Source: Myxococcaceae bacterium (GTDB lineage Bacteria; Myxococcota; Myxococcia; Myxococcales; Myxococcaceae). Taken from it: DNA of 30,659 nucleotides. A model generated the notes under the pieces. That model was not told the origin of the DNA, did not search any database, and saw only the letters and a program-made list of their open reading frames with translations. Made by a program: the position numbers and the translations under genes. The DNA is taken from contig JBGART010000083.1 of NCBI GenBank assembly GCA_044230055.1, positions 1 to 30,659 on the forward strand. The letters are read 5' to 3'. This document shows, one piece after another, positions 3,835 to 26,129 of the stretch; the stretch's first letter is position 1; the number at the start of each line of letters is the position of its first letter.

Positions 3835-3889
3835 GAGGGGTGCCCGGTATCTTGCGCGAAGCCCCCTCGAGGACAAGTGCGCAGCAGGC

Positions 3890-4288
3890 TCAGTCGCGCG
3901 GCGGAGACACGGCGCAGAGGAAGCGGGCGCGGTTGTCGTCCGAGGACTGGGGCGGCCCCAACCCGCTCTGCGGCCCACCGAAGACAAGCTCCACCCCCTC
4001 GCGCGGGGCGTCGGATGGGGCGGGTGCCGGCTCGTACAGGAGGAGCTCGCACCCCAGCTTGCGGCCCTCGTCGCGCGCGGCGTCTCGGATGGCGCTCAGG
4101 CGGGTGGTGTTCGAGTGAAAAACCTCAAGCACGCCCACCGTGCGGTAGCCCTCCGGCGCGCTCGCTGCCGCGAGGAACCGCGGGTCCATCGCGAGCTTCG
4201 TGGGCGCGTAAGCCTTATCCAGCGGCAGAAAACGGGTGGTGACGCACGCCGGGAGCAGACACAGGCAGATGGAAAGTCGCAGGCGCAT
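3890..4288 (-). CDS. Small lipoprotein, function unknown (~132 aa).
   Basis: ATG at 4288 gives MRLRLSICLCLLPACVTT..., a lipoprotein signal with lipobox Cys. High GC3 codon usage. The in-frame upstream extension to GTG 4492 reported by the ORF track is probably not translated. Confidence 0.5.
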   Translation of the reverse strand: MRLRLSICLCLLPACVTTRFLPLDKAYAPTKLAMDPRFLAAASAPEGYRTVGVLEVFHSNTTRLSAIRDAARDEGRKLGCELLLYEPAPAPSDAPREGVELVFGGPQSGLGPPQSSDDNRARFLCAVSPPRD

Positions 4289-7908: not shown

Positions 7909-9291
7909 TTATTTTTGTGACAGCGCTGCGCTGCTTTCATTCGCACTCCAGCTCAAGTCGACTTCAACAGGCACCGCGCGTGTGGATTGGCTCATCACTG
8001 AGCGCAATCCGAGCGTAGAGATTACGGTGGAGGCCGCCTCTTCACCGGAGCGCACGGCGCCCTCGACGCCAGGGAGCGCGAGGTAGTCCCCAGCGAGGAT
8101 GACCGGATGGCGGTGGGCGCGCCGCGCTGCGAGCTGCGAGAGCCATCCTTCATAGAAGAGCGGCATCGCCTCGGCAATCTGAACAACCGACGACTTCGAC
8201 GGAGCCAGCGCGCGACCCAGCAGCTTCTCCGTTTCGGCCAGCAGCGTGTCCCTCACCACTGCTTTGGACTCCGACAGCAGGCGCGGCGCGGCCCCGACAG
8301 AGGCGATGGTCTCCAGCCCGCCCTTTCCGACAGGCACCTGTGAGGTCCCTTTCGCTTCGACGGCCGCCACCCAACCCAGTGGCGCGTTCGGGCCGAACGG
8401 AATGGCGCAGCGGATACCCACCGGCGCGTCCAGGCATTGATGGAGCTTCACCGTCGGTTGGTAGCGCGCGCGCCGCACCAGGCTGAGCTCCGGGTGGTCC
8501 GAGGGGAGCATCGCCGCCGCGGCGGGCCCCGGGACGGCCATGACCGCCATCTGTGCGTCGAGCACCGCGCCGTCCTGCAGCGTCACGCGCACGCCAGGCC
8601 CCGCCGCCAAGACCTTCGCCACCGGCGAGGAGGGCCGGAAGTCCAGCCCGCGCGCGACGGATTCCCACAGCCGCCCGAGGCCGCCCTTGAGGCAGAGGGT
8701 CTTCAGGCCCGCCACGTGGACCGCTTCAAGCAGCGCCCAGGCGCGCGAGGTTTCGGTCGCCGGCAGCAGCGTGATGCTCTCCAGGACCGGCCGCAGCAGC
8801 GCGTCCACGAACTGCTCGCCCAACGCCCGCCGGAAGAACGCGTCGGCGCTCTCGTCGTCGAAGCGCGCCGCCCGGTGGGGATGCTCCCAGGAGAGGAACG
8901 GGAGCGCCCAGAGGCCCTTCGCGCCGAAGGCCAAAGCGCGCAGCCGCGCTCGCAGGCTGAGCAGCGGCGTCCGGAGGAACCGGGCCAAGGTCAACGGCAA
9001 GGGGAAGCGCTGCCCGTCCCGCCAAAGCTCGATGTCCTGGAAGGGGTAGGGCACCAGCTCGCCGGTGAGCCCCTGCCCCGCAATGAGCGCCAGCGTGCGC
9101 CGGTTGAAGGACGCGATGAAGACCGCGCCGCGGTCGAAGCGCCACTCACCAACGCGGTCGTAGCCGGACCTGCCGCCGGGCGCCGCGGCGCTCTCCAGCA
9201 CCACCACCCTCGCCCCGTGCTGGGTGAGCTTCACCGCGGCCGCCAGCCCCGCCGGGCCGCCACCAATCACCACCACGCGCCTGTCACCCAT
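7909..9291 (-). CDS. FAD/NAD(P)-dependent oxidoreductase of the amine-oxidase/phytoene-desaturase/protoporphyrinogen-oxidase superfamily.
   Basis: N-terminal Rossmann dinucleotide motif MGDRRVVVIGGGPAGLAAAVKLTQHGARVVVLESAAAPGGRS. Length 460 aa. The start overlaps the upstream gene stop (operon). The C-terminal ~40 aa run into the low-GC region and may be an over-extension. Confidence 0.75.
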   Translation of the reverse strand: MGDRRVVVIGGGPAGLAAAVKLTQHGARVVVLESAAAPGGRSGYDRVGEWRFDRGAVFIASFNRRTLALIAGQGLTGELVPYPFQDIELWRDGQRFPLPLTLARFLRTPLLSLRARLRALAFGAKGLWALPFLSWEHPHRAARFDDESADAFFRRALGEQFVDALLRPVLESITLLPATETSRAWALLEAVHVAGLKTLCLKGGLGRLWESVARGLDFRPSSPVAKVLAAGPGVRVTLQDGAVLDAQMAVMAVPGPAAAAMLPSDHPELSLVRRARYQPTVKLHQCLDAPVGIRCAIPFGPNAPLGWVAAVEAKGTSQVPVGKGGLETIASVGAAPRLLSESKAVVRDTLLAETEKLLGRALAPSKSSVVQIAEAMPLFYEGWLSQLAARRAHRHPVILAGDYLALPGVEGAVRSGEEAASTVISTLGLRSVMSQSTRAVPVEVDLSWSANESSAALSQK

Positions 9292-12598: not shown

Positions 12599-13762
12599 TT
12601 AGAAGTAGAGCCGAATCTGCAGGTGCCCCATCCTCGGGACCGAGCCGAGCTCACCCGCGCCGACGCTTACCATCCCTCCCGCGGCGACGGTGGTGTTCTG
12701 GTCAAAGCTCCACTCCAGCTCTGGCACCACCAGGCCAGAGCCGTCCGTCAGGTTGGCGATGACCACCAGGTTCGCCGTGAGCAGCGCGCCCAGCTCGTAG
12801 CTGACGGCCGCGCCCGCGTAGAAGCGCCCGACCAGGGCCAGCTCCCCCGACTGCCAATCCAGGCGGCGCCGGACGTCTGCGTAGCCGGCGGGCGTCAGCG
12901 CACCGGCGCGGCTGTAGTGCAGCTCCGCGGTGACGGTGAGCCCCGGCCGCAGCGTGTGCTGCGCGCCGACGGTGGCCCGCAGCAGCGGAATGCGCGAGGG
13001 CGGCTCCTCCACTTCTGAGCCGTCCTGCCGCGCCCGCCAGAACCCCTCCGCGTAGAGCGACGCGCCGCCCACGTCCCCGGAGACATCCACTGCCACCGCC
13101 GGCGACGTGCCGGAGACGCCGGCGTACGCCGCGAGGTCCACGCCCGGGACGCTCACCCGGGCGCGGCCCAGCAGCGCGCCCTGGCTCAGGTAGCGGCGGT
13201 GGCCCACCGCGTACACCTCCAGCTCCACCTGCTCGCCCACCGGCGCAGTCAACCGCACCGCGTCCACGCCGGTCTTGAACTCCCGGTCCAGCGCTGCGGG
13301 GTGGAACGGCGCGAAGAGGTCCGACGCGGCGAACAGCCGCGCGCTGCCGTGGCCCAGCGCCTGACGCCCCACCCGCAGCGTCGCCGCCCCCACCGCGAGC
13401 GTCAGCATCAAGCGGTCCAGGTTCTGGTCCAGCGCGAAGCTGGAGGTGCGCACAATCTGCCGTGGCGCATCCACCAGCCGCAGGGCGGTGTGAACCGAAG
13501 GCGCTGCTTGCAGCGGGAAGACCGCCGACTGGAGCGCGTAGGCCAGCTCGAACGCGCCGTCCTCGCCGCTGACTTTGAGCTCCGCGCGCAGGCCCTGCTC
13601 CACCGCAGCCTGCGCCGGCGCGTCCGGCCCCGCGGGCGCGAGGTAGAGCGTGAGCACCTTGAGCCGCCCGCCGAAGGTGGCGGTGCGCTCGGCCCCTGAG
13701 AGCTCGAACGCGAAGGCGGCCCGGGACGCGAGCAGCAGCGCGAGCCACGCGGCCCGCCTCAT
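12599..13762 (-). CDS. Outer-membrane beta-barrel protein (signal peptide, C-terminal aromatic residue), last gene of the export operon.
   Basis: MRRAAWLALLLASRAAFA signal. Alternating amphipathic beta-strand pattern. C-terminal ...HLQIRLYF. The start overlaps the stop of the upstream ABC ATPase gene. Confidence 0.6.
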   Translation of the reverse strand: MRRAAWLALLLASRAAFAFELSGAERTATFGGRLKVLTLYLAPAGPDAPAQAAVEQGLRAELKVSGEDGAFELAYALQSAVFPLQAAPSVHTALRLVDAPRQIVRTSSFALDQNLDRLMLTLAVGAATLRVGRQALGHGSARLFAASDLFAPFHPAALDREFKTGVDAVRLTAPVGEQVELEVYAVGHRRYLSQGALLGRARVSVPGVDLAAYAGVSGTSPAVAVDVSGDVGGASLYAEGFWRARQDGSEVEEPPSRIPLLRATVGAQHTLRPGLTVTAELHYSRAGALTPAGYADVRRRLDWQSGELALVGRFYAGAAVSYELGALLTANLVVIANLTDGSGLVVPELEWSFDQNTTVAAGGMVSVGAGELGSVPRMGHLQIRLYF

Positions 13763-14472
13763 CGCCGCTCGTCTGCCTCAACCCTCCCGTCGTGGAGCGT
13801 CACCCGCCGGGACGCGGCGGCCATCACCCGCGGGTCGTGCGTGGAGAAGATGAACGTCGTCCCCAGGCGCCGGTTGAGGTCCACCATCATCTCCACGAGC
13901 GCATCCCCGGTCTTGCTGTCGAGGTTGGCGGTGGGCTCATCCGCCAGCACCAGCGCGGGCTTCGGGGCGATGGCACGCGCCACCGCCACGCGCTGCTGCT
14001 GCCCGCCGGAGAGCTCGTTCGGACGGCGGTGCAGCTTGTCGCCCAGCCCCACCTGCTCCAGCGCGTGCGAGGCGCGCTCCCTCCGCTCCTTCTTCTTCAC
14101 GCCCTGAATCCACATCACGTACTCCACGTTCTCCAGGACGCTCATCACCGGCACCAGGTTGTAGGCCTGGAAGACAAAGCCGATGCGGTCTCTCCGCAGC
14201 AGGCTGAGCGCGCTCTCCGGCAGGCGGGTGAGGTCCTTCCCCTCGAGGACGACGGCGCCCTCACCCGGGCGGTCCAGCGCACCCACCAGGTGCAGCAGCG
14301 TGGACTTGCCGGAGCCCGAGGGGCCGGCGATGGCCACCAGCTCCCCCGGCGCCACCCGGAGCGACACCCCGTTGAGGGCCCGGACGGTCTCGCTGCGCGA
14401 GGTGTAGTGGCGGCTGACGTCCCGAAGCTCGACGACGTTCTGCGGGGCGACCATGACGGCTCCCTCCTCCAT
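13759..14472 (-). CDS. ABC transporter ATP-binding protein (LolD/MacB-NBD/FtsE-like).
   Basis: Walker A GPSGSGKST, ABC signature LSGGQQQRVAVARA, Walker B LVLADEPTANLD, H-loop THD. ATG at 14472 overlaps the permease stop (ATGA). Confidence 0.85.
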   Translation of the reverse strand: MEEGAVMVAPQNVVELRDVSRHYTSRSETVRALNGVSLRVAPGELVAIAGPSGSGKSTLLHLVGALDRPGEGAVVLEGKDLTRLPESALSLLRRDRIGFVFQAYNLVPVMSVLENVEYVMWIQGVKKKERRERASHALEQVGLGDKLHRRPNELSGGQQQRVAVARAIAPKPALVLADEPTANLDSKTGDALVEMMVDLNRRLGTTFIFSTHDPRVMAAASRRVTLHDGRVEADERR

Positions 14473-15698
14473 CAAGCGGGATTGAGCGCTTCCACCGGCC
14501 GCAGGCGCGCGGCCCGCACCGCGGCGAAGAGCCCGGTGAGCGCGGTGAGGCCGGCGAACAGCGGCGCCAGCGTGAGCGCGTGCGCGGCCTTCGGCCGGAA
14601 CAGGATGGCGTCCTTCACGTAGACGCCGGAGAACTCCATGCCTTCGATGGGCATGCCCCAAATGGCGAACGGCGCACACAGCGCGAAACCCAGCGCGCAG
14701 CCGGCCGCCGCCCCCAACAGGCCCAGCGCGGTGGACTCGCACAGCAGCAGCGCAGCCAGCCGCGCGGGCGAGGTGCCCAACGCGCGCAGGACACCGAGCT
14801 CGCGCAGCCGCTCCGCGAAGGACATCCGCAGGGTGTTGACGATGGAGAAGCTCGCCACACCGAAGACGGCCAGCGCCAGCAGGTAGATGAGGTTGCGCTG
14901 GAACTGGTACGCGGTCCACAGGAGCGCGTTGAGACGCTGCCACGGCGCCACCTCCACGTCCGGACCCAGCGCCCCGCTCAAGGGCAGCAGCGCAGCGTCC
15001 AGCACCGCCGGGTCCGTGTTGGGCCCCGCAAGCTTCAGCGCCACCTCGTGCAGCTCCCCGCCCTGCCCGCTCAAGGCGCCGGCCTGCGGGAGCGAGGTGA
15101 CGACGGCCTCGCGGTCCAGCAGCGCGTTTCCAGAGGCGATGAGGCCGCTCACCCTCACCAGAACGCTGCGCAGCTCGCCGGTGCGCGCGTCCGCCGCGGT
15201 GAGCACCAGCTTGTCGCCCACGCCCAGCTCCAACCGGGTGGCCAGCTCATGCCCCAGGAGCGCCTGGCCCTCACGGACCGGCCAGCTGCCGTGGAGCAGC
15301 TTCCGGTGGAAGAGCGTCACCTTCGGCTCCTCGGCAAGGTCCACGCCGATAACCTGCACGTTGGCGCTGCGGTCTCCCATCGCCGCCAGCGCCAGCACGT
15401 ACTGCCGCGGCGCCGCGGCGAGCACGCCCGGCGTGGCGCGGGCAGCTTCCAGCGCGCGGGGCCCGTCCGGAAGAACCCGCTCCTGCTCGCGCTCGGCGCG
15501 GTAGGCGCGATGGTGCAGCTGCGCGTCGCCCAGAAAACCTCCGGCGGAGACCTCCACCGCCTGGACGAAGAGCCCCTCGATGTAGCCGAGCAGGAAGAGG
15601 AAGAGCGCCAGGCCCAGGCCAATGGCGGACGCGGTGAGCAGCGTGCGCTGCCGCTGCCGCCACAGGTTGCGGAAGGCGAGCGTGAACATCCAGAGCAT
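14472..15698 (-). CDS. FtsX-family ABC permease (LolC/LolE/MacB-like, four TM with large periplasmic domain).
   Basis: N-terminal LAFRNLWRQRQRTLLTASAIGLGLALFLF and C-terminal FtsX block ...VASFSIVNTLRMSFAERLRELGVLRALGTSPARLAALLL... Confidence 0.8.
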   Translation of the reverse strand: MLWMFTLAFRNLWRQRQRTLLTASAIGLGLALFLFLLGYIEGLFVQAVEVSAGGFLGDAQLHHRAYRAEREQERVLPDGPRALEAARATPGVLAAAPRQYVLALAAMGDRSANVQVIGVDLAEEPKVTLFHRKLLHGSWPVREGQALLGHELATRLELGVGDKLVLTAADARTGELRSVLVRVSGLIASGNALLDREAVVTSLPQAGALSGQGGELHEVALKLAGPNTDPAVLDAALLPLSGALGPDVEVAPWQRLNALLWTAYQFQRNLIYLLALAVFGVASFSIVNTLRMSFAERLRELGVLRALGTSPARLAALLLCESTALGLLGAAAGCALGFALCAPFAIWGMPIEGMEFSGVYVKDAILFRPKAAHALTLAPLFAGLTALTGLFAAVRAARLRPVEALNPA

Positions 15699-15703
15699 GG
15701 GGC

Positions 15704-16903
15704 CTACGTCTCCTTCATCGCGTGAAGCGGAGTCAGCCGCGCGGCGCGGAGCGCGGGCCAGAGGCTGGCGAGCAGCCCGCCTACCAGCAGCACCAGCGGA
15801 TAGAGGAGGTTCCCCTCCGCGGTGGCCAGCCCCTGCACGGTGTGGAAGACGACGCCGGCAATCTCCATCGGCTCATCGCCTATCGGAACTTGAAGGCCAT
15901 TCATCGCGGTGCCCAGGAGCGCGCCCACCGTCACGCCTCCGGCCGTGAGGAAGAAGGCCTCCCAGAGGATGAGGCCCACCACCTGGCGGGGTGAAGTCCC
16001 TAGCGCACGCAGGATGCCCAGCTCGCGCGTCCGCTCGAAGACGGACATCAGCAGCGTGTTGACCACGCCCACCGCGATGATGGCCAGGAAGATGACCACG
16101 CCTGGCCGGTTCGCGCCGCGCTCGGTCCGGATGTAGTTGGCCAGCGCAGGCATCACCTCCGGCCAGCCCTGCAGCCGGTGTCCCTGCACCGAGGGCAGGC
16201 GCGTGAGGAAGGCCTCCAGCGCCGTGGGCTCATGCAGCCGGCCCACCACCCGGTGCGCGCGGTCCGGCAGCTCCAGGAGCTCTCGGGCGTCGGCCAGGGT
16301 CACGAAGGCCAGCGCGCTGTCCGCCTCGTCGGAGCCGGAGGTGTAGACGCCGCGGACGCGGAACAGCTGCGCCGCGACGGCGCCGTCCGCGGCCTGACCG
16401 AGGAAGCTCACCTCGTCCCCCACCTTCACGCGCAGCCGCGCGGCCACGCCGCGGCCTAAAAGGATGTCCGCGCCGGCGCCGGGCGTCAGCCACGCGCCCT
16501 CCTTCACCGCGGCGGGGATGCGCGTCACCTCCGGCTCGCGCACCGCGTCCACGCCGATGAGGCGGACGCCGACAGACCTGTGGCCGGCGGAGACCAGCCC
16601 GGGCGCCTCCACCCGCTCGGTCACCGCGCGGACCTCGGGCGCCTCCCGCAGCGCCTGCGCCACGGCGCCCGCGCCGCGCACCGTCTTGTTCACGCCCGGG
16701 CGCGCGTTGAAGTCGCCCGCCATCACCTGGAAGTGACCGTGAAAGCCCTGCGTCACCCCGTCGGTCAGCAGCGCGAAGCTGCCCTCGTTGACGCCGTTTA
16801 TCCACACCAGAAAGGCGGTGCCCAGCACCACCATCGCCACGGTGAACGCCGAGCGGCGGGTGTTGCGGCGCAGGTTGCGCAGCGCCAGCCCTGCGGTCGC
16901 CAT
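15704..16903 (-). CDS. FtsX-family ABC permease (second LolC/E-like paralogue).
   Basis: MATAGLALRNLRRNTRRSAFTVAMVVLGTAFLV... and C-terminal ...VGVVNTLLMSVFERTRELGILRALGTSPRQVVGLIL... The ORF-track ORF (to 17374) over-extends; ATG at 16903 abuts the upstream gene stop. Confidence 0.8.
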   Translation of the reverse strand: MATAGLALRNLRRNTRRSAFTVAMVVLGTAFLVWINGVNEGSFALLTDGVTQGFHGHFQVMAGDFNARPGVNKTVRGAGAVAQALREAPEVRAVTERVEAPGLVSAGHRSVGVRLIGVDAVREPEVTRIPAAVKEGAWLTPGAGADILLGRGVAARLRVKVGDEVSFLGQAADGAVAAQLFRVRGVYTSGSDEADSALAFVTLADARELLELPDRAHRVVGRLHEPTALEAFLTRLPSVQGHRLQGWPEVMPALANYIRTERGANRPGVVIFLAIIAVGVVNTLLMSVFERTRELGILRALGTSPRQVVGLILWEAFFLTAGGVTVGALLGTAMNGLQVPIGDEPMEIAGVVFHTVQGLATAEGNLLYPLVLLVGGLLASLWPALRAARLTPLHAMKET

Positions 16904-17649
16904 CACCCGCCCCCGGAGGTGAGCGCGGAGAGCGTGAAGAGGGACTCGCTGGCCGGCGTGTCGAACTCCAGCGTGTCGTAGAGGAGCGTCGTCTGGTGGC
17001 CCTGCTTCGTGAGCGGCGTGACCACCAGCTTGTGCGGCGTGAGCCGCTCCCCCACCTTCCTCACGTCGGAGAACGTCAGGCGGCGCGCCAGGCGGCCCTT
17101 GTCGTCGTGGTACTCGCAGGTGACCGGGACCAGCGTCCGCGCGTCCACGCAGGCCACCACCCGCTCCCAGGCGACCGCGGCGTCCGGCCGGGCCTTGAGC
17201 TCCACGCAGGTCTGCCCTTCGGGCGCGGATGGGAGGGTGGTCCCCTCGTAGTCGACGCTGTACTTCACCGCCTGGACGAGGTCGTCGTGGGTGAAGTCGC
17301 TCCCCATCCAGGAGCTCATCAACATCGAGGGCGGGATGCGCACCGTCTTGCCAATCTTCGGCAGGTAGTTCCACATCTGGGCGCCCTTCTTCAGGCTGGC
17401 AGTGCCGCTCTCCTTCTTCGGCGCCAGAATCCTCACCAGCGCGTCATCCGCGCCGCGCGACCAGAAGTCCAGGCTGAGCTCGCGCTGGAAGTCCGGCGCC
17501 TGCACCTGCATGCGCATCCGGCCGTGGCTGGTCCGGGACCGGAACAGCTCATCCAGCCGCGCGCTCACCGCCTTCGCCTTCTCATCCGGCGCCGCCTGCG
17601 CCGCGACGCCCGCCACCAGCAGCGCCAGCACCCATCCCCGGCTCCTCAT
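16903..17649 (-). CDS. Periplasmic LolA-like / outer-membrane lipoprotein-sorting (DUF-type) protein commonly partnered with FtsX/ABC exporters.
   Basis: Signal peptide MRSRGWVLALLVAGVAAQA; ~230-aa beta-rich soluble protein; conserved partner position. The start ATG overlaps the TfuA stop (ATGA). Confidence 0.6.
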   Translation of the reverse strand: MRSRGWVLALLVAGVAAQAAPDEKAKAVSARLDELFRSRTSHGRMRMQVQAPDFQRELSLDFWSRGADDALVRILAPKKESGTASLKKGAQMWNYLPKIGKTVRIPPSMLMSSWMGSDFTHDDLVQAVKYSVDYEGTTLPSAPEGQTCVELKARPDAAVAWERVVACVDARTLVPVTCEYHDDKGRLARRLTFSDVRKVGERLTPHKLVVTPLTKQGHQTTLLYDTLEFDTPASESLFTLSALTSGGG

Positions 17650-18977
17650 CCGTTCGCCCCTCCGTACTCGCGCAGCAGCTCCTCCAGCAGCGCCTCACCG
17701 CTCTCGAACCCCAGCTCCCGCGCGTGCAATTCGACGGACCCGCCGACGGTCCGCACCTGCCGCTGGTAGGTCTCCAGCGCGCGCGCCAGTCGCCGCTCCC
17801 GCGCTCCAGGCTCCTCGGCCGCGGGTGCCGGGCGCTCGCGCAGGTGCGCAAGCGTGCGCCCGAACGTCCCGCGCCGCTTGAGCTCCTGCGACAGCAGCTG
17901 CGCCAGCCGCCCCTCGCCGCGCAGCGCCGCCTGTACCTTGTCGAAGAGCACCTCGAAACGCAGGACTTCGCGCAAGCCCGCGCCCGACAGCTGATTCTCC
18001 TCCAGCCAGCGCCGCGTGGCCTGCGCGCTCACCAGGCCTCGCGCCCGACGGAAGCGCTCACCGGCCGCCGCCACCTCCTGCTCGCTGACGGCAAGCCCCC
18101 TCGCCGCCGCCTCCAGCTCCAGCAGCTGGAGCAGCACCGTCGAGCGCAACAGCTCCTCGCCCTCCGGCCGCACGCGCACGCCCCGCCAAAGCGCCGCCGC
18201 ATCCACGTCTGCAGACGGCGCGTCCGGCAACGCGAGCTGCTCCGGTGAGGTGGAGCGGACCAGCTTGTGCCAGAAGCGCGTCTGCTCGAAGTGAAAGCCC
18301 GGCGCGGGCGCCAGCGCCGGCAACCCTTCAGCGAGCCGCTGCAACAGCGCCACCGCGTCGCTCCGCTTGAGGTTCGGCCGGTGGGCGAGGACGAAGGCGC
18401 GCAGCCGCGCGCGCTCCGCACCCGGGATGGCCAGCGCTTCGCCCAGCCCCTCGCTCCACAGCGCGGGCCAGCTGCGCTCCGGGTAGTGCAGCCCCTTCGC
18501 CGCCTGCTCCAGCAGCGTCCGCGTCCGGGCGGAGATGTCTCCGGCCTGCTCCGCCAGCCGCAGCCCATCCCGCAGGTTGACCATCGCGTCGGAGAGCGGC
18601 ACGTAGCCGTCCTCCGCGGGGCCGTGGACCACGGTCACCTCGTCGTCGTCCTCCAGCACCCCGTCGCGGTAGGCCTCGAAGATGCGCCCCACGCCCTCCA
18701 TCCCGAAGGCACAGAGCTCCGCGGCGCGCAGCGCCCCCATGCTGGAGGCCCCCAGTACGCGCACGCCGCTGGCCAGCGCGAAGAGCAGCTCCTTGTGCCA
18801 GACCGCCGGGCGCTGTTCAAAGAAGCCGTCGATGAGCGCGATGACGGACGGCTTGCGCGTGGCCACCAGCTGGTAGACGTCCCCCATCGCCGCTGGGGGC
18901 AGGAAGTGGGCCGTGGGGAGCAGGGCCTTCGCCTCGACGGGCGGCAGGGAAGGACCCAGGAAAACCCAGACGCTCAC
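17646..18977 (-). CDS. TfuA-like protein (YcaO partner for peptide backbone thioamidation) with ~200-aa C-terminal extension.
   Basis: N-terminus (M)SVWVFLGPSLPPVEAKALLPTAHFLPPAAMGDVYQL...IALIDGFFEQRPAVWHKELLFALASGVRVLGASSMGALRAAEL...GVGRIFEAYRDGVLEDDDEVTVVHGP, a near-textbook TfuA domain. GTG start overlaps the YcaO stop. Confidence 0.8.
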   Translation of the reverse strand: MSVWVFLGPSLPPVEAKALLPTAHFLPPAAMGDVYQLVATRKPSVIALIDGFFEQRPAVWHKELLFALASGVRVLGASSMGALRAAELCAFGMEGVGRIFEAYRDGVLEDDDEVTVVHGPAEDGYVPLSDAMVNLRDGLRLAEQAGDISARTRTLLEQAAKGLHYPERSWPALWSEGLGEALAIPGAERARLRAFVLAHRPNLKRSDAVALLQRLAEGLPALAPAPGFHFEQTRFWHKLVRSTSPEQLALPDAPSADVDAAALWRGVRVRPEGEELLRSTVLLQLLELEAAARGLAVSEQEVAAAGERFRRARGLVSAQATRRWLEENQLSGAGLREVLRFEVLFDKVQAALRGEGRLAQLLSQELKRRGTFGRTLAHLRERPAPAAEEPGARERRLARALETYQRQVRTVGGSVELHARELGFESGEALLEELLREYGGANG

Positions 18978-20209
18978 GCGCGCGCCTCCTGCGTTGCGGA
19001 GGCCTTGAGGTATGCGTTGACGCGTGGGCCCGGCTGGTAGTCGCTGGCGAAGAGCCGCGCCTCCAGCCCCGGGACCACTACCTTCACCACGGGCACCTTC
19101 AGCTCCGGCCGGGAGAGGTTCACCACCGCTGCTTGCGCCAGGCCGATGCGCCGCAGCGCCTGCACGAGGACCTGGAGGTCTCCCTCGAAGGTGTCCGTCG
19201 CCAGGCTGGCGCGCGCGCGGAACGCGGCGGCCGGCGCCGGGGTGCGGATGCGCTCAATGCGGGCGGCCAGGGCGGCGTCACGCGTCCAGGCGCGGTACTT
19301 CGAGTAGAAGAGGTCATCCCGGCTCCCGGAGACGAAGGCCAGCCGGCTCTGCACCGCTTCGCTGAGCGCGCGCATCAGCGCCACCGCGGGGGAGAGGTGA
19401 CAGCCGTAGCCTCCGAAGATGCCCAACCTCCGCCAGCGCGGCCGGTCGGATCCGTCGAAGAGCTCGCAGGCGTACGCCGGGATGCCGGTGTCCGAGGTGA
19501 CGTCCCAGATACCCACGTCGACGTCCGCCAGCCGCATGCGGCGCAGCAGCTCCAGACAGCCGGCGTCATCCACCGTCGCCGGGTCCACCTGCCGCGTCTT
19601 CGCTTCCTCGGCGCTCTGGTACTCCCAGAGCGTGATGGCGTCCCGCTCGATGAGCTCGCACAGGCCGTGGACGGTGGCCTCCACCAGGTGATTGCCAGAG
19701 GCCAGCCCGTTGCTGGAGGGCGGCACGACCGGGCGGTAGCCCGCAGGCCAGACGAAGCTGACGCTCACCGCGTCGTGCGGCACCCAAACGGACTCGCCGC
19801 GCAGGAGGTCCTCTCCCTCCACCCAGAGGCAAGGGCCGGCTTGGGGACCCAGCCCCAGCTCCAGCACCCGGGAGGACTTCGCCAGCAGCGCAGGCTGTTC
19901 GTGCCGCAAGGGCAGCGCCAGGTGTTCGCCGTGCCAGACCTCGATGGACTCCATCAGGGCGGACACCTTGGCGGCGAGAGGGTCCAACCCCTTCCCCTGC
20001 GACGTCGCCAGCGAGCGCGAGTTGGGCCGCACCGCCACGTAGACGGGCAAGCCAATCCGGTCCAACCCCGTCACGTTCGCCAGCCGCGTGATGCCCAGCG
20101 GGCCCATCAGCGGCGAGAAGCGCGCGAAGGTCTCCTCCGGGCTGCACGCGCGGTGCGTCCCGTTGAGGAAGCGCTTGGGCGGATGCGGTGGCTCGCCCCA
20201 GAGGTTCAT
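18974..20209 (-). CDS. YcaO-domain protein (ATP-dependent peptide backbone amide activation: cyclodehydratase/thioamidase type).
   Basis: LNGTHRACSPEETFARFSPLMGPLGITRLANVTGLDRIGLPVYVAVRP...LCELIERDAITLWEY (YcaO ATP/Mg-binding ExxERD-type motifs). ATG overlaps the stop of the upstream HO-like gene. Confidence 0.85.
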   Translation of the reverse strand: MNLWGEPPHPPKRFLNGTHRACSPEETFARFSPLMGPLGITRLANVTGLDRIGLPVYVAVRPNSRSLATSQGKGLDPLAAKVSALMESIEVWHGEHLALPLRHEQPALLAKSSRVLELGLGPQAGPCLWVEGEDLLRGESVWVPHDAVSVSFVWPAGYRPVVPPSSNGLASGNHLVEATVHGLCELIERDAITLWEYQSAEEAKTRQVDPATVDDAGCLELLRRMRLADVDVGIWDVTSDTGIPAYACELFDGSDRPRWRRLGIFGGYGCHLSPAVALMRALSEAVQSRLAFVSGSRDDLFYSKYRAWTRDAALAARIERIRTPAPAAAFRARASLATDTFEGDLQVLVQALRRIGLAQAAVVNLSRPELKVPVVKVVVPGLEARLFASDYQPGPRVNAYLKASATQEARA

Positions 20210-20928
20210 GCGGTCTGCCGGTAGACGTCGTGACCCATCCGCCCCCAGGTCTCCAGGGTGGCGCGCGCGTGGAGCAACACCGCCTCCTGGTCCGCCGGGT
20301 CCGTGAAGCCGCGCAGCCGCCGCCGGGCCGCGTCCATGTGACCCACGTCCGACTCCGCGTGGCCGCCGAAGAAGCTCACCGCGTTGCGGATGTTGGGGAG
20401 CTGCGAGTGGGCGATGAGGTTCTTCACAATCCGTCCCGCCACCTTCTCCCCGAGCGACTCCAACACGTAGGCAATGCCCCAGACGCCCACCGGCGTGGGA
20501 CTGAGCGCGGCCGCCCAGAACATGGCGATGTACGCTTTGGCCGCCGGGCCGGGCTGGCTGCGCTCCAGCGCCTCGCGGGAGACGCCCAGCTCACCCAGGT
20601 CCGAGGCCAGCCACGCGTCATGCCCGGACTCTTCGTCACCGTGCGCGGCCAGCTCCTTCGCCATCTGCTGGAGGTAGGGCGTCTTGAAGCGCGCCCAGCG
20701 CGCGTCCGCGAAGCGCGCATCGTCGCTGCCGTAGAGCCGCATGGACTCGCCGGCGGCGCGGAGCATGGCGGGGACGTGCTTGGCGCCCTGGCGAATCTCG
20801 TCATAGATGCCGATGAGCTGCGCGCGCGTGGGCGTGCCGCGCAGGAGCGGCCCGAAGACCGGGTCCTCCTCCAGCTGGGCCGCCAGCTGCGCGCTCAGCG
20901 CTTCCAGCTGTTCAATCAAGTCGCTCAT
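20206..20928 (-). CDS. Haem-oxygenase-like di-iron enzyme / 'iron-containing redox enzyme family' (TenA/PqqC/CADD-like fold) protein.
   Basis: ~240 aa, all-helical. Recurring E/H/D ligand pattern (...DEESGHDAW..., ...FFGGHAESDVGHMD...). Family assignment is from memory of this protein family and is less certain than YcaO/TfuA. Confidence 0.55.
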   Translation of the reverse strand: MSDLIEQLEALSAQLAAQLEEDPVFGPLLRGTPTRAQLIGIYDEIRQGAKHVPAMLRAAGESMRLYGSDDARFADARWARFKTPYLQQMAKELAAHGDEESGHDAWLASDLGELGVSREALERSQPGPAAKAYIAMFWAAALSPTPVGVWGIAYVLESLGEKVAGRIVKNLIAHSQLPNIRNAVSFFGGHAESDVGHMDAARRRLRGFTDPADQEAVLLHARATLETWGRMGHDVYRQTA

Positions 20929-21010
20929 GGTGTTTCGCCTTCGGGTGACGGGTGGCTTCGAAGCACGGCGCGGGCGACGTGGAGCTCGCCCGCGCCATGC
21001 CGCTACAGGC

Positions 21011-21148
21011 GTCAGTCGTTGATGAGACAAGCGTTGCCAATCAGGCACGCGTCGCCCACCGGGTCGCTGCTGATGAGGCAGGCCGACTCGGCCTTGCTCT
21101 CACCGGCGAGCTCTTCCGCCGTCTTCACGTCGAGATCCTTGATGTCCA
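21011..21148 (-). CDS. Candidate RiPP precursor peptide, 45 aa: MDIKDLDVKTAEELAGESKAESACLISSDPVGDACLIGNACLIND. Acidic helical leader + core with three ACLI repeats.
   Basis: Found by hand translation of the 270-bp gap between the terpene synthase and the HO-like gene. ATG at 21148 is preceded by AGAGAGGAGGGGAAGAGAAAAA (GGAGG RBS). GC3-rich codons are consistent with host usage. TGA stop at 21011-21013. Not in the ORF track (too short). Confidence 0.65.
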
Positions 21149-21200
21149 TTTTTTCTCTTCCCCTCCTCTCTTGGGCCAGGGTCGTCACGGGTGGCCGCCC

Positions 21201-22106
21201 TCAAGAGAACAGGGCACCGGGGACGGTGTCGAAGCGAGCCGTTGCCCATCGGCCCCAGTCGTAAGAACCGCGCATGATGTGTCGCAAGACCTCGGTGAGC
21301 CGTCGGACCGCGGCGTCCGCGGCGCCGCCGAAGCGGGGCAGCGCCTTCTCCCGCTCCAGGAAGAGCTCCACCAATCCATTGGAGACGCGGGCCACCCCCT
21401 CCAGCGCCCGCGTAGAAGAGCAGCCGCGCTCCGCCTTGAGCATCCGCACCACGTTGTTCTCCCGGCAGGTGTCCGGTTTCATGGAGAAGGCCAGCACGTC
21501 GCTGGTGAGCCGCACTGCCAACGCGGCCAGCCGCTTGAGCCGCGCGAGCGCCGGGTGACACCGCAGCTGCGGCGGCACGTCGATGCCCTTGAGCACCTCG
21601 ACAATCCAGACGCAGGGATAGATGGCCACCGCGGACGCCTCCATCTCCAGGTACTGCGCGAAGGACGGGACGCGGGACAGCCGCCGGTTCTCCGCCTCCC
21701 AGCGCCACGAGTCCTGCATCTCCTCCACCAGCACATCGAACTCCTCGAGCGCTGGCCGCTCGCAGAACGTCCCCAGCCGCTGGCGGAGGTCGCCGAAGGC
21801 GGCCCCCAATGCCGCGTCCATCACCCGGGGCTGCCTCGCGCACGACGTCCCATCACAACGGGCGTCGATGGCGAAGACCCAGGCCAGGTAGTCCGCGAGG
21901 AGCTGGAGCCGCTCCGTGGGACCGTCGGGGTACATCATCCCCCCGAGCACATGGACCGCGAACCGGTCGAACTCCCCGACTGCTCCGGCGTCGAGCACGC
22001 CCATCTGTTCCAGCCATTGCAGCATCGGCTGGCGGGTGTGCTCACACCGGACGTTGGACGCAGGCGGGAAGGGATAGAAGAGGTCTGGAAGGCGCGCCGT
22101 CTGCAC
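21201..22106 (-). CDS. Class I terpene synthase (bacterial terpene cyclase family) with degenerate first metal-binding motif. The start is uncertain (GTG 22106, or upstream 22220 overlapping the neighbouring gene).
   Basis: LPDLFYPFPPASNVRCEHTRQPMLQWLEQMGVL...LADYLAWVFAIDARCD aligns with the ...ADYSAWFFVWDDRHD region of bacterial cyclases; here the DDxxD motif is D-A-R-C-D. An NSE-like region RENNVVRMLKAE lies ~135 aa later, and the C-terminus has a W...R(F) motif. Confidence 0.65.
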   Translation of the reverse strand: MQTARLPDLFYPFPPASNVRCEHTRQPMLQWLEQMGVLDAGAVGEFDRFAVHVLGGMMYPDGPTERLQLLADYLAWVFAIDARCDGTSCARQPRVMDAALGAAFGDLRQRLGTFCERPALEEFDVLVEEMQDSWRWEAENRRLSRVPSFAQYLEMEASAVAIYPCVWIVEVLKGIDVPPQLRCHPALARLKRLAALAVRLTSDVLAFSMKPDTCRENNVVRMLKAERGCSSTRALEGVARVSNGLVELFLEREKALPRFGGAADAAVRRLTEVLRHIMRGSYDWGRWATARFDTVPGALFS

Positions 22107-22125
22107 GGGTTCCTGACCTCGCCCG

Positions 22126-22593
22126 CTACTGGCGGCGTCCCCAACCGGTGAAGTTGACGTCCTTGTTGCCCACGCTGACGAAGCGGATTTCCCGCCCGCC
22201 GTCGTCGAGCACGAACTCAATCTTCGAGGCTTCGCCCTCGGCGGTGATGCAGTCCATCTTGCCGAGGCCGCCGCGGCGCAGCTCGTACTTGCAGACGAAC
22301 GCCTCGCGGGCGCTCTGGCCGCCGGGCGCGCTGATGACGAACTCGCCCGTCACGCGGCTGATGCCGTCCGCGTGCAGCCGCCCAATCTCGAAGATGCGGG
22401 CGCCGTTGGCGAGGACACCCTCCACCGAGACGCCGTAGGCGCCCTTGAGGTCATGCGGCTTGAAACAGTCGTTGGCGTTGTTGTTGAGCGCCTGCGTCTG
22501 GGCGGACAGCTCCTCGCCAGGCGTGGCCGCCATCAACAGGGCAGCGAGGGGAACCAGGACGGCCACCGAGGACAGCGCATAGAGCTTCTTCAT
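22126..22593 (-). CDS. Secreted hypothetical protein (~155 aa, signal peptide, beta-rich; calycin/nitrobindin-like guess only).
   Basis: ATG 22593 gives MKKLYALSSVAVLVPLAALLMAATPGEEL... The ORF track's longer version uses an upstream alternative start. Confidence 0.5.
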   Translation of the reverse strand: MKKLYALSSVAVLVPLAALLMAATPGEELSAQTQALNNNANDCFKPHDLKGAYGVSVEGVLANGARIFEIGRLHADGISRVTGEFVISAPGGQSAREAFVCKYELRRGGLGKMDCITAEGEASKIEFVLDDGGREIRFVSVGNKDVNFTGWGRRQ

Positions 22594-22639
22594 GGGTGTG
22601 TTCCTTCGTGAAATGGGTTTTGAGTGTTTCGGTAGGAGT

Positions 22640-24139
22640 TCACTGGAATGTCTGAACAGAGCGCCCGCTGGGGAGCGACGTCGGGATGAGCTGCCTGAGC
22701 CGGACGGGGCTGGCGCGTGGGTCCGCCAGGCCGTTGGAGACGAACGCCACCAGCGCGTTGAGCTCCGCGTTGGTGAGCGACACCGGCTGACCCATGCGGG
22801 AGTCCAGCGTGGTGAGGACAATCTCGTTGACCGGGGTCTGGTTTCGGCAGTCCGAGGGCAGGCCCAGCTTGTTGAACTTATGCAGCGAGTCGTGGACATC
22901 CAGGTGGTGCCGAATGGCGCCCGCCAGGCTGTCGAACGCGCCGTTGTGGAAGTAACGCGGGCTGTAGGCCAGGTTGCGCAGCGGCGAGGTCCGGAACTTG
23001 TAGCGGTCCGCGGCGGTCCCGCTGACCTGCTCCAGCCCGAAGTCCTCATTGCCGCCGGGCCCATCCCAGGTCACGTTGGTGAGCGAGGGGAAGACCGGCG
23101 GGACGCCGATGTTGTGCTGGGCGAAGTCGCTGAACATCTCGTTCGCCTCACCCGAGACCGCATGGCAGCCAACGCAGCCCGCCTTGCCGAAAAAGAGCAG
23201 CGCGCCGCGCTTCTCCTGCTGGGTGAGCGCGTTCTCGTGGCCGCGGGCGAAGCGGTCAATGGGCGCGTTCGCGTACGTCTGGCTGAGCTCGAACTCGGCG
23301 ATGGCCGCCGCCAGCATCTCGTACGTGATGGGGCCGCCGTGCTTGACGATGGAGTAGACCCGGCCGAACAACTTCCGGTACTCCGCGTTGTTGTTCAGCC
23401 GGGCGATGACGTCGGTCCGGACGACGTCGTGGTCGGTGGAGGCGTTCAGCCCGGCCATCTCCGGCAGCTCCGTCGGCGGTATGAAGGCCTGTGCCGTGAG
23501 CAGCGTGGGCATGGCGTCCAGCGAAGAGCCCTCCGGCGAGGGGAAGAGGAAGCCCTGGCTGTTGTCGAACGGGTCCCCGGACTTGGCGGCGAACCGCGAG
23601 TTCCACATCAGCGTCGGGTAGAACGCGTTGTTGGCGATGCCCGGCGCGCGGCGCTGGTTGCGCGGGCCGACGCGGGAGCTCCCCACCTTCTGGTTGTTGT
23701 CGATGCCAATGGCGATGGCCTGCGAGTCACCCCACCCCGCGGTGGGCGCGTGACAGCCGGAGCAGGAGTTGTCGTCCTTGAGCGCCAGCAGACTGTCGAA
23801 GAAGGCCAGCCGTCCCACGTTGGCCAGGTTCGCGTTCAGCTTCCTGCCCAACCGCGGCTCCAGGGTGGCTTGAACCCGCCCGGTGAAGCCGTACTGCTTA
23901 AGGATGACCTTCAAGGCGACGTCGAGCGGGTCCTTGGCGCGCGCGTTGGAGCGGTCCCGCCCAGGCGCCTCGTGCGCCTCTCCGTCGGTCAGCGCTTCGG
24001 GGAGCAGGTCCAGCTGGGCCAGCTCCGCGCTGAGGGCGTCGCTGTCCTCTGACAGCTCGTCCGGCGCCTGCAGGCCCGGGCCGCAGCCCGCCGTCAGCAT
24101 GGCCGCGAAGAGCGCGGCGGTGGTTTTGAATTGAGACAT
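22640..24139 (-). CDS. Di-haem cytochrome c peroxidase (CCP/MauG family), lipoprotein.
   Basis: Two CxxCH haem motifs (CSGCH, CVGCH); lipobox LTAGCG; ~500 aa, typical of the family. Confidence 0.8.
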   Translation of the reverse strand: MSQFKTTAALFAAMLTAGCGPGLQAPDELSEDSDALSAELAQLDLLPEALTDGEAHEAPGRDRSNARAKDPLDVALKVILKQYGFTGRVQATLEPRLGRKLNANLANVGRLAFFDSLLALKDDNSCSGCHAPTAGWGDSQAIAIGIDNNQKVGSSRVGPRNQRRAPGIANNAFYPTLMWNSRFAAKSGDPFDNSQGFLFPSPEGSSLDAMPTLLTAQAFIPPTELPEMAGLNASTDHDVVRTDVIARLNNNAEYRKLFGRVYSIVKHGGPITYEMLAAAIAEFELSQTYANAPIDRFARGHENALTQQEKRGALLFFGKAGCVGCHAVSGEANEMFSDFAQHNIGVPPVFPSLTNVTWDGPGGNEDFGLEQVSGTAADRYKFRTSPLRNLAYSPRYFHNGAFDSLAGAIRHHLDVHDSLHKFNKLGLPSDCRNQTPVNEIVLTTLDSRMGQPVSLTNAELNALVAFVSNGLADPRASPVRLRQLIPTSLPSGRSVQTFQ

Positions 24140-24178
24140 GATTGAGCTCAGTTCAATGTGCTTTTAGACGCTTGACGC

Positions 24179-24616
24179 TCAGCCGCCCTCAGAGCAGCCC
24201 GGAAACGGATTGGTCTTGCAGGAGAGGGGCTCGCAGCCGCAGCCGAACGGGTTCTCGCAGTGGCAGTACGCGTTGTTCCCGCACTGGTTCGCCGGGCCGT
24301 TGGCGACGCAGGGCATGGCGCAGAAGAAGCTGAAGTGCTCGCCCTCCATGTTCTCGATGGAGGAGCAGTAGATGGCCTTGCCGTTGTTCGCGCAGTCAGA
24401 GTGCGTCTCGCAGAACTTCCCCACGCCAAGGTTGTTGCCCTTGTCTCCCCAGCGGCCGCAGCAGGACTCGGAGATGGGACCGCAGTAGTCGATGGCCGGC
24501 TTGGCGAGCGCGGCGCTGCTCTCGTTGACGTGCTCTGAGTCGGCGAGCGCCTGCTCGACACAGCCAGAGGTGAGGAGGACTGCGGCGAACGCTGAAACGG
24601 CAATGAGATGTCTCAC
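24179..24616 (-). CDS. Cys-rich secreted lipoprotein (145 aa, ~18 Cys), function unknown.
   Basis: MRHLIAVSAFAAVLLTSGC lipoprotein signal. Cys-dense mature part (...YCGPISESCCGRWGDK...CETHSDCANNGKAIYCSS...FCAMPCVANGPANQCGNNAYCHCENPFGCGCEPLSCK...). Confidence 0.55.
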   Translation of the reverse strand: MRHLIAVSAFAAVLLTSGCVEQALADSEHVNESSAALAKPAIDYCGPISESCCGRWGDKGNNLGVGKFCETHSDCANNGKAIYCSSIENMEGEHFSFFCAMPCVANGPANQCGNNAYCHCENPFGCGCEPLSCKTNPFPGCSEGG

Positions 24617-24764
24617 GTGTCATTCTCCCTGTTGCGTGGTTCAAGAAATCAGCGCGCGAGCGGCGGGTCGCGAGTCGAAGGCGCCGAGGGTTTGTTGACG
24701 TATGGCCAGCTGGAGCGCCGAGGGTGACATCCGGAATTGTTTTTCCGGCGGGCTCCGGCAGCCG

Positions 24765-26129
24765 CTACTGCCCAGACCCCACGGCGCCGAGCTCCGCCCC
24801 ACCCAGCTCGCGCAAGAGCTCTCGCGCCCGCTCCACCTTCACGTGGCCCACCTTCACCAGCAGGTCCGCCACCTTCTCCACCCAGTCGCCACGCGCGCCG
24901 GCGGTGACGGCGACGCAGCGGGCGTGCAGCGCCATGTGCCCCTGCTGGATGCCGACGGAGCCCAGCGCCCGCAGCGCGGCGAAGTTCTGCGCCAGGCCGA
25001 CCGCGGCGAAGACCATCGCCAGCTCGCGGGCGCTCTGCGCACCGAGCAGCTTGAGGCCAACCTGGACGCCCGGGTGGGCCTGGATGCTGCCGCCCACCAT
25101 GCCCAACGCGAGCGGCAGCTCGAGCTCCCCCACCAGCGAGTCACCGTCCAGCCGCCAGGTGGAGAGCGGCCGGTAGCAGCCCGTCCTGCTCGCGAAGGCA
25201 TGCGCTCCGGCCTCGATGGCGCGCCAGTCCTGCCCCGTGGCCAGCGCCACCGCGTCAATGCCATTCATGACGCCCTTGTTGTGGGTGGCCGCGCGGTAGG
25301 GGTCCGCCTGCGCGAAGCGGCTGGCCTGCACCACACCCCGGGCAATCTCCTCTCCCGACCGTTCGAAGGCGGCCAGGTCCCGCACGGGAATCTGGCAGCG
25401 GGCGCGGGCCAGCCGGCGGTCCGCGTAGTTGGAGAGGATGCGCAGGTGCACCTCGCCACCCGTGAGCGCCTCCACCAGCGGGGCCACGCCCTCGGACATC
25501 GTGTTGATGAGGTTCGCGCCCATCGCCTCCTGCGTGTCGATGAGCAGGTGCACGATGAGCAAAGGCTCCGCGTCCGGCCCCTCCGGCGCGGGGAGGATGC
25601 GGACCTCCACGTCCTTCGCGCCGCCCCCGCGCTGCACCATCCGGGGATGGAAGCTGTTGGCCAGCGCCAGCAGCTCCTCGCGCGCGGACAGCAGGCGTTC
25701 GCGGGCGGCCAAAGGGTCTCCGTAGCTGGAGACCTGCACCTGGCCAATCATGAGGGAGGCGTCGGCCTCCGCGACGAAGCCGCCCGCGGCGCGCACCACC
25801 TTCGCCGCCAGCGAGACCGCGGCGATGACCGAGGGCTCCTCCACCACCATCGGGACGACGTACTCCCGGCCGTTGACGATGAAGTTGAGGCCCAGGCCCA
25901 GCGGCAGGCTGAAGGTGCCCAGGGCGTTCTCAATCATCTGGTTCGCCACCTCCGCGCCGAGCGAGCGCTCTCCGGAGAGCTGCTGCAACTCAACAGGCGT
26001 GAGGCGAAACATCCGGCCGACGCGCGCCAAACGCTCCGCGCGGTCGAGCTTGTGAAATCCCTTCATACGAGATGTCACAGCACCGGCGACGCCATTCTTG
26101 TCTTCAGACATGACTTCGCCCCGCTCCAT
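24765..26129 (-). CDS. Class II HMG-CoA reductase (mevalonate pathway).
   Basis: ...EVANQMIENALGTFSLPLGLGLNFIVNGREYVVPMVVEEPSVIAA..., ...DTQEAMGANLINTM..., ...ATHNKGVMNGIDAVALATGQDWRAIEAGAHA... (conserved class II HMGR blocks). Confidence 0.85.
   Translation of the reverse strand: MERGEVMSEDKNGVAGAVTSRMKGFHKLDRAERLARVGRMFRLTPVELQQLSGERSLGAEVANQMIENALGTFSLPLGLGLNFIVNGREYVVPMVVEEPSVIAAVSLAAKVVRAAGGFVAEADASLMIGQVQVSSYGDPLAARERLLSAREELLALANSFHPRMVQRGGGAKDVEVRILPAPEGPDAEPLLIVHLLIDTQEAMGANLINTMSEGVAPLVEALTGGEVHLRILSNYADRRLARARCQIPVRDLAAFERSGEEIARGVVQASRFAQADPYRAATHNKGVMNGIDAVALATGQDWRAIEAGAHAFASRTGCYRPLSTWRLDGDSLVGELELPLALGMVGGSIQAHPGVQVGLKLLGAQSARELAMVFAAVGLAQNFAALRALGSVGIQQGHMALHARCVAVTAGARGDWVEKVADLLVKVGHVKVERARELLRELGGAELGAVGSGQ

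Follow-up and report, generated by a model that had tools for sequence, protein, structure and literature searches.

The window analysed here, a 30,659-nucleotide stretch of DNA from a Myxococcaceae bacterium (contig JBGART010000083.1), carries a gene for a protein with the fold of a class I terpene synthase (TS) directly upstream of a gene for the precursor of a peptide made on the ribosome and modified after translation (RiPP). Judged by alignments and a predicted structure, the window TS is a well-folded class I TS-type protein that lacks the residues holding the Mg3-diphosphate unit, and it is very probably not a working cyclase. Comparison of gene order provides good evidence that the TS, a MauG-like di-haem protein and a small secreted beta-barrel protein all belong to a rare RiPP operon, since the order persists across three diverged loci. 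The explanation that we favour, and to which we give about an even chance, is that the window TS is a folded but catalytically dead relic, possibly kept as a binding partner. Natural-product biosynthesis normally keeps class I TSs and RiPP pathways on separate branches, and the finding that three diverged loci each have a TS-fold gene flanked by the barrel and precursor genes suggests an undescribed functional link.

Active site and predicted fold of the window TS

The TS gene (21201-22106, minus strand) starts with GTG and encodes 301 amino acids in a frameshift-free frame with a third-position G+C content (GC3) of 0.88. Its product scored 84.9 bits against PF19086 (cut-off 23.7) and matched solved sesquiterpene synthases at E ~1e-26. 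All matches were to TS family models and TS structures, and neither an ABBA barrel nor a trans-IDS fold with FARM/SARM motifs was found.

Sequence motifs were read in alignments to T-muurolol and cubebol synthases and to the 134 nearest homologues. The Asp-rich motif of the window TS is DARCD instead of DDxxD, the second position being Asp in 131 homologues; this substitution by Ala had been noticed in the original prediction, and alignment to both solved TSs and homologues confirms it. The pyrophosphate-sensor Arg, present in 131 of the 134, is replaced by Glu156 (YLEMEAS). The NSE triad, NDxxSxxKE, reads SDVLAFSMK, with Asn changed to Ser, Ser to Ala, and Glu to Lys, at positions that are kept in 132 (N), 133 (S/T), and 133 (E/D) homologues. 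The triad had been described as shifted, which is wrong: all three ligands are replaced, and no N/D, S/T, E/D set with i, i+4, i+8 spacing could be found near residues 200-213. The C-terminal RY pair is RF, with Phe also occurring there in 12 homologues. An in-frame deletion has further removed 17-19 residues downstream of the Asp-rich motif, so that the distance from the motif to the next helix is 11 residues, versus 28 in the closest relative (P0003, introduced below) and a median of 30 elsewhere. Each of the five lost positions is 97-98% conserved (131-133 of 134 homologues), and departures at four or more key positions were seen in just one other sequence of this set. We conclude from the alignments that the motif losses go far beyond chance variation.

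The predicted fold is intact. An AlphaFold2 model of the window TS had a pLDDT of 85.6 and a pTM of 0.87, with low confidence confined to the termini, the deletion site (residues 87-93), and the region of the NSE helix (residues 211-214). Foldseek aligned the model to T-muurolol, epi-cubenol, and cubebol synthases with TM scores of 0.84-0.87 (0.86 for 9hr0). The alignment and structure-prediction check of the Mg site that had been proposed for this protein thus returned an intact fold and lost metal-binding residues, and the suggestion that it is an atypical, perhaps non-cyclase, protein of the class I TS fold is supported.

Bacterial TSs with eroded motifs, either missing the pyrophosphate sensor or carrying RF in place of RY, were found to be weakly active or inactive, and their authors attributed this to pseudogenisation; an enzyme lacking the sensor Arg and an RF-bearing enzyme both retained weak activity (PMC10509563). 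Given these experiments and what is known about the TS mechanism, canonical cyclase activity of the window TS appears to be impossible. For genome mining, this means that a 'terpene' call at this locus should be treated with caution.

Relatives of the window TS and conservation of gene order

A word-index protein search with the window TS returned the protein itself plus one match at 25% identity. An exhaustive phmmer search of 1.84 billion representatives revealed, short fragments aside, one relative above 32% identity, P0003, which is 39% identical; the other matches were at 32% or below, and two short fragments reached 33%. P0003 is encoded on a 2.35-kb metagenome contig, L082, whose gene order is that of the window: a di-haem protein represented by its C-terminus (40% identity), a barrel gene, the TS gene, a precursor gene, and the start of a gene for a haem-oxygenase-like (HO-like) protein. 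The L082 barrel protein is secreted, contains 156 amino acids, and is 47% identical to the 155-residue window protein. The L082 precursor (49 amino acids, MEFNIEDLEVKSAAALCEVEMGAAESACLVESACLVESACLIGNACLIG; 1930-2079, plus strand) is 54% identical to the window peptide and contains four ACL(V/I) repeats. The partial HO-like open reading frame (ORF), which covers the N-terminus, is likewise 54% identical to its window counterpart.

A third locus was reached through the barrel. A profile of the two barrel proteins, run against 5.8 billion proteins, yielded one further homologue, P0281, with 63% identity. The 3063-bp contig that encodes it (JGI sample 3300071325) contains, in order, a partial 388-aa ORF, the 160-aa barrel, a 318-aa PF19086 protein, a 41-aa ORF, and another partial ORF. 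This locus is known by ORF lengths and family matches, not by the sequence of its TS; going by its length of 318 amino acids, the third TS appears to be without the deletion. The order di-haem protein, barrel, TS, precursor, HO-like protein is therefore common to the window and L082, with the third locus repeating the ORF order, while proteins of the three loci are only 36-63% identical. The original prediction had named a TS gene lying apart from the RiPP block as the result that would speak against a physical tie between the two; the opposite was observed, as both other loci keep the order, and the MauG-like di-haem protein emerges as a member of the conserved block.

The motifs of P0003 differ from those of the window TS. 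P0003 has DDLFD, NDVLSLSRE, and RY, and a Gly at the position of the sensor Arg. Outside these motifs both proteins are far from consensus: out of 82 generally conserved TS columns, 46 are kept in P0003 and 48 in the window TS, compared to a median of 64 in other homologues. Such a pattern suggests that the metal site of P0003 is under specific selection. Because P0003 retains the site amid strong divergence elsewhere, the function of the clade would seem to need it, and the ancestral enzyme was probably metal-dependent; by the same token, the state of the window TS looks like a lineage-specific loss. L082, with a TS whose metal site is intact, and the window, with a dismantled one, thus form a natural pair within one operon family.

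The di-haem segment of L082 could not be used as dating evidence, since it is 40% identical to the window protein versus a median of 44% for unrelated stand-alone homologues. A scan of metagenome DNA for ACL(I/V)GNACL(I/V) gave one chance match within a glutamine-synthetase-like gene, and no match to the barrel was obtained in a viral collection. A different TS homologue that has lost four key residues, P0147 (L086, 5924-6889), was rejected as a relevant case, its gene context being unrelated to the operon. P0147 lacks the sensor Arg, the Asn and Ser of the NSE triad, and the Arg of RY; upstream of its gene are a MalT-like regulator gene, a 31-aa ORF, a DUF5317 gene, and a 100-aa ORF, and it may be an independent non-canonical TS adjoining a small peptide gene.

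The RiPP operon and its neighbourhood

The gene map of the window was assembled from an ORF listing and Pfam and NCBIfam scans, together with independent gene calling on a Logan contig of identical sequence. The window contig, from an organism whose reads are in SRR28480390, has a G+C content of 70%, and every window protein tested was a singleton at 90% clustering. The proposed uninterrupted minus-strand run from 26129 to 12599 was upheld by the gene calls, with spacing between genes of -4 to 148 bp and GC3 values of 0.85-0.96 in all frames. The TS gene is separated from the barrel gene by 19 bp and from the precursor gene by 51 bp. The largest gap, 148 bp, lies between the genes for HMG-CoA reductase (HMGR) and a Cys-rich lipoprotein; it contains no terminator-like site, and its predicted RNA fold is unremarkable (z -1.7). 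A sigma-70 promoter scan found none. The earlier gene list held up overall, except that it had given the lipoprotein 18 Cys residues (we counted 16), had missed the 155-aa gene at 22126-22593, and differed in TS length (301 amino acids, versus 339 for the maximal ORF).

The precursor gene (21012-21149, minus strand), recognised by gene call and by reading of the sequence, encodes 45 amino acids, MDIKDLDVKTAEELAGESKAESACLISSDPVGDACLIGNACLIND, with three ACLI repeats. The cores of both precursors are repeats of (S/N)ACL(I/V)x, and their leaders are also conserved (M-D/E-x-x-I/K-x-DL-D/E-VK-T/S-A in the window and L082). The repeats resemble eukaryotic CaaX prenylation boxes (Cys-aliphatic-aliphatic-X). 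Directly after the window precursor gene lies a perfect 16-bp hairpin (20962-21001, minus strand; minimum free energy -42.4 kcal/mol, z -3.7), and a hairpin of ca. 25 bp with another sequence occupies the same position in L082 (2083-2140, plus strand; z -5.2). Both lack a downstream U-run. These hairpins are likely attenuators or transcript-stabilising elements that set the ratio of precursor to enzymes.

Downstream of the hairpin are genes for an HO-like iron-containing redox enzyme (20206-20928, minus strand; 240 amino acids; PF14518, 49.3 bits), YcaO (18974-20209, minus strand; PF02624, 249.9 bits), and TfuA (17646-18977, minus strand; PF07812, 154.8 bits). The latter two genes overlap by 4 bp where one stops and the next starts, and they constitute a predicted thioamidation pair; the NF033432 score in this pair, 199.5 bits, is under the curated cut-off of 235.2. 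Thiovarsolin clusters are characterised by YcaO, TfuA, a haem-oxygenase-like enzyme, and a repeating short core (PMC6511847), and such an architecture was also noted in Proteobacteria (PMC8120280). Each of these elements was found in the window, namely adjacent YcaO and TfuA genes, an HO-like gene, and a repeating-core precursor, with PF02624, PF07812, and PF14518 all above their cut-offs. By family content, the operon is of the thiovarsolin-like YcaO/TfuA RiPP type, with genes new to that type. The run ends with a Lol-like export set (12599-17649, minus strand) that comprises a LolA-like protein (PF17131, 149.7 bits), two MacB_PCD/FtsX permeases (PF02687/PF12704), an ABC ATPase (PF00005), and a 387-aa protein, the genes overlapping or being at most 17 bp apart. 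The permeases are similar to LolC/LolE and the ATPase to LolD, and the 387-aa protein, which belongs to no family, is a putative outer-membrane protein. Such a set hints that the product being exported is hydrophobic or lipidated.

Upstream of the TS, the small secreted protein of 155 amino acids (22126-22593, minus strand) has a mature part that forms an 8-stranded beta-barrel, and its gene is the conserved partner directly preceding the TS gene. Its structural matches include YceI-like polyisoprenoid-binding proteins along with many other barrels. Next comes the gene for a probable di-haem lipoprotein of 499 amino acids (22640-24139, minus strand), with a signal peptide ending in MLTAGC. Its assignment to the CCP/MauG superfamily in the original prediction was confirmed by PF03150 (99 bits) and by two CxxCH motifs, CSGCH and CVGCH. 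The protein gave full-length matches to BthA (6nx0) and MauG in the PDB; taken together, the models for the MauG, MbnH, and His-Xaa-Ser subfamilies (TIGR03791, TIGR04039, and TIGR03981) all scored it below their cut-offs (100.7 versus 443.85, 106.2 versus 362.85, and 140 versus 340 bits, respectively). A scan of a genome collection with the di-haem protein retrieved 80 loci (L002-L081) at 47-62% identity, spread over Sorangium, Gemmatimonadota, Acidobacteriota, Chloroflexota, and others. The family is thus well conserved, but its neighbourhoods are not: no neighbour recurred among the 80 loci, and genes for HMGR, the lipoprotein, the barrel, the TS, or RiPPs were absent from the surroundings of all of them. 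The di-haem protein thus appears to have been recruited into the operon from a widespread stand-alone family.

The probable Cys-rich lipoprotein (24179-24616, minus strand; 145 amino acids, signal peptide ending in LLTSGC) had no match in Pfam or NCBIfam, even at E=10. Its frame is coding-like (GC3 0.88), and it is a singleton at 90% clustering. The gene preceding it encodes HMGR (24765-26129, minus strand), a putative, unproven member of the cluster. HMGR scored 363.5 bits against PF00368 and 390.6 bits against TIGR00532 (cut-off 259.95), so that the proposed class II enzyme could be confirmed. Its best BLASTP matches, at 72-78% identity, were from Pyxidicoccus, Corallococcus, Myxococcus, Hyalangium, and Stigmatella, which puts the organism close to the Myxococcaceae. 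In an alignment with 14 relatives (Myxococcaceae/Archangiaceae HMGRs), in which 209 columns were invariant, the window HMGR was the most divergent of the 15 sequences: it was 70-77% identical to the others, which were 74-95% identical to each other (means 76-84%).

In five related loci, HMGR lies within a mevalonate arrangement, fni-hmgr-mvk-mvd-pmk, where fni encodes type 2 IPP isomerase and mvk, mvd, and pmk encode mevalonate kinase, decarboxylase, and phosphomevalonate kinase. L083 and L088 have the whole arrangement, and contig ends truncate it in L084 (upstream side only), L089, and L090. The window HMGR has neither flank of this operon, which confirms the proposed stand-alone position, an unusual one; its neighbours are a divergent YnfA gene and the Cys-rich lipoprotein gene, and no mevalonate gene other than HMGR is present in the window. 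The HMGR copy is displaced from the mevalonate operon, and the orientation it shares with the cluster cannot be taken as evidence of a function. The L082 and third-locus contigs are too short to show either HMGR or the Cys-rich lipoprotein. A role in precursor supply would be deduced from position only, and it is awkward given that the window TS has lost its diphosphate and Mg site. The displaced HMGR may be an additional, cluster-linked copy that serves supply or self-resistance, or else a single copy moved by rearrangement.

Further downstream, a 770-aa protein (9300-11612, minus strand) combines an N-terminal polyprenyl synthase (PF00348, 191 bits; first Asp-rich motif DDIED) with a C-terminal part of ca. 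440 residues that had no match in Pfam or among PDB sequences. Its gene is a third isoprenoid gene near the RiPP operon, and the protein may be an undescribed fusion of a prenyltransferase with another domain. It is followed by a gene for an FAD amine-oxidase/phytoene-desaturase-like protein (7909-9291, minus strand). A large secreted GH25 muramidase with PEGA, glucodextranase-B, and CarboxypepD_reg domains (1717-3987, minus strand) is typical of predatory myxobacteria and is unrelated to the TS finding.

Readings of the operon and comparison with known systems

The favoured reading can be laid out as follows. The TS would have been inherited as part of a rare RiPP operon and would not be a stray neighbour, and the operon family would have the order of a periplasmic MauG-like di-haem lipoprotein, a secreted barrel, the TS, the precursor with its hairpin, and an HO-like oxidase, continuing in the window with YcaO, TfuA, and the Lol-like exporter. 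By analogy with thiovarsolin, YcaO and TfuA would thioamidate the repeating core and the HO-like enzyme would oxidise it. Most likely, the ancestral operon TS was an Mg-dependent enzyme that used a prenyl diphosphate. In the window lineage the site would then have been dismantled, through replacement of the second Asp by Ala, of the sensor Arg by Glu, and of N/S/E by S/A/K, and through loss of the helical segment behind the Asp-rich motif. The resulting protein would no longer bind Mg3-diphosphate or start carbocation chemistry, and would have at most a binding or scaffold role.

Several observations weigh against this reading. The ORF of the window TS is intact and co-linear, with a GC3 of 0.88 and a confidently predicted fold, so a function may still be under selection. 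Lys210, which stands where the NSE Glu would be, is conceivably able to contact a diphosphate in the absence of metal. There is no sensor Arg in P0003 either, which is very divergent and whose own activity is not assured; since an enzyme without the sensor retains weak activity elsewhere (PMC10509563), the clade may already have been unusual before the losses seen in the window. The synteny, finally, rests on two short metagenome contigs.

An unlikely alternative is that TS and peptide are unrelated, the former being an ordinary sesquiterpene synthase whose gene came to lie beside the RiPP genes in an ancestor, was carried along, and is now decaying. Myxobacteria commonly have TS genes, TS branches in the course of pseudogenisation have been described (PMC10509563), the window copy bears hallmarks of decay, and both cluster TSs are unusually divergent. 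However, the window gene is wedged between barrel and precursor rather than placed at an edge, the interleaved order has outlasted divergence to 36-63% identity, P0003 retains its metal site, and a gene of no use would not remain intact for so long. Far less probable, and barely tenable in our view, is the strongest form of the original prediction, in which HMGR, the TS, and their neighbours make up a dedicated terpene pathway with an active, atypical cyclase. It can draw on the detachment of HMGR, the most divergent in its set, from the mevalonate operon of the five related loci, and on its co-directional upstream position, separated from the next gene by 148 bp that contain no terminator-like site. 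The TS, however, is missing five near-invariant catalytic residues, the window has no further mevalonate genes, no other gap in the run is as large as these 148 bp, and neither of the two other loci, both too short to be informative, showed HMGR.

A quite unlikely possibility is that the TS-fold protein is still an enzyme, one of non-canonical chemistry that, for example, attaches an isoprenoid to the Cys or thioamide sulfur of the ACLI repeats, or cyclises it there, with HMGR and the 770-aa fusion giving the donor and the beta-barrel and Lol-like system handling the lipidated product. Such an enzyme would account for the retention of the TS at three loci, for its intact ORF and fold, and for the many positions at which the entire clade departs from the TS consensus; HMGR, the TS, and the polyprenyl synthase (9300-11612) lie within 17 kb on one strand, LolA-like and LolCDE-like genes follow downstream, and the barrel resembles YceI-like polyisoprenoid-binding proteins. 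That last similarity is generic, however, and there is no known way for the fold to ionise a diphosphate without the second Asp, the sensor Arg, and all NSE ligands. The canonical site of P0003 also makes the window state lineage-specific and not a new site shared by the clade, and known RiPP prenyltransferases are ABBA or trans-IDS-like proteins, not of the terpene cyclase-like 2 subfamily (PMC13290415). Also quite unlikely, in our estimation, is a broader proposal in which the operon makes a terpene-peptide hybrid: in copies with an intact site, such as L082, the TS-fold protein would generate a cation from a prenyl diphosphate, and either the thiol of Cys or the sulfur of a thioamide in the CaaX-like ACL(I/V) repeats would trap it. 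The barrel and the MauG-like enzyme would take over the resulting lipidated and thioamidated peptide in the periplasm, the Lol-like system would move it, and the window may represent a lineage that lost the TS step or re-invented the site without metals. If true, this would be the first RiPP tailoring enzyme of the terpene-cyclase type, and a new kind of RiPP tailoring.

Compared to class I sesquiterpene synthases of PF19086 (T-muurolol, 9hqd/9hr0; 10-epi-cubebol, 7zrn; selinadiene, 4okm), the window TS has the same all-helical fold (TM 0.84-0.87, 25-32% identity) and shares structural residues such as W31, W136, E137, N140, R141, D203, W284, and R291. It differs in the absence of the second Asp of DDxxD, the sensor Arg, and the NSE ligands, in having RF, in the 17-19 missing residues, and in being encoded in a RiPP operon rather than a terpene cluster. 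The eroded TS branches described previously keep the Asp-rich motif and NSE (PMC10509563), whereas the window TS has lost far more, and has done so in a conserved operon context.

RiPP prenyltransferases (ABBA enzymes of cyanobactin pathways and trans-IDS-like ComQ, PalQ, and ChrPC) resemble the window case in that an isoprenoid-synthase-superfamily protein is encoded by a RiPP precursor gene, and ABBA and trans-IDS-like enzymes are the only two types in a 2026 review of peptide prenylation (PMC13290415). They target Trp (trans-IDS-like) or other residues (ABBA), whereas the window precursor contains no Trp, and the window protein belongs to the terpene cyclase-like 2 subfamily and is missing the donor-binding metal site.

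The window di-haem protein has the PF03150 fold and two CxxCH motifs of MauG, MbnH, and BthA, and full-length similarity to BthA and MauG, but falls below the subfamily cut-offs for MauG, MbnH, and His-Xaa-Ser proteins. The gene for MbnH is paired with that of a small periplasmic protein, MbnP, and the window di-haem gene is likewise paired with a gene for a small periplasmic protein.

Another parallel is with thiovarsolin (varA/varY/varT/varO; PMC6511847), which shares the repeating-core precursor, YcaO, TfuA, and haem-oxygenase-like iron enzyme. The thiovarsolin core is APR, in contrast to (S/N)ACL(I/V) in the window and L082, and the ATP-grasp, amidinotransferase, and MFS genes of thiovarsolin have no counterpart in the window operon. 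The latter, found in a Myxococcaceae-related host rather than an actinomycete, adds instead the TS-fold protein, the MauG-like di-haem lipoprotein, the secreted beta-barrel, and the Lol-like exporter.

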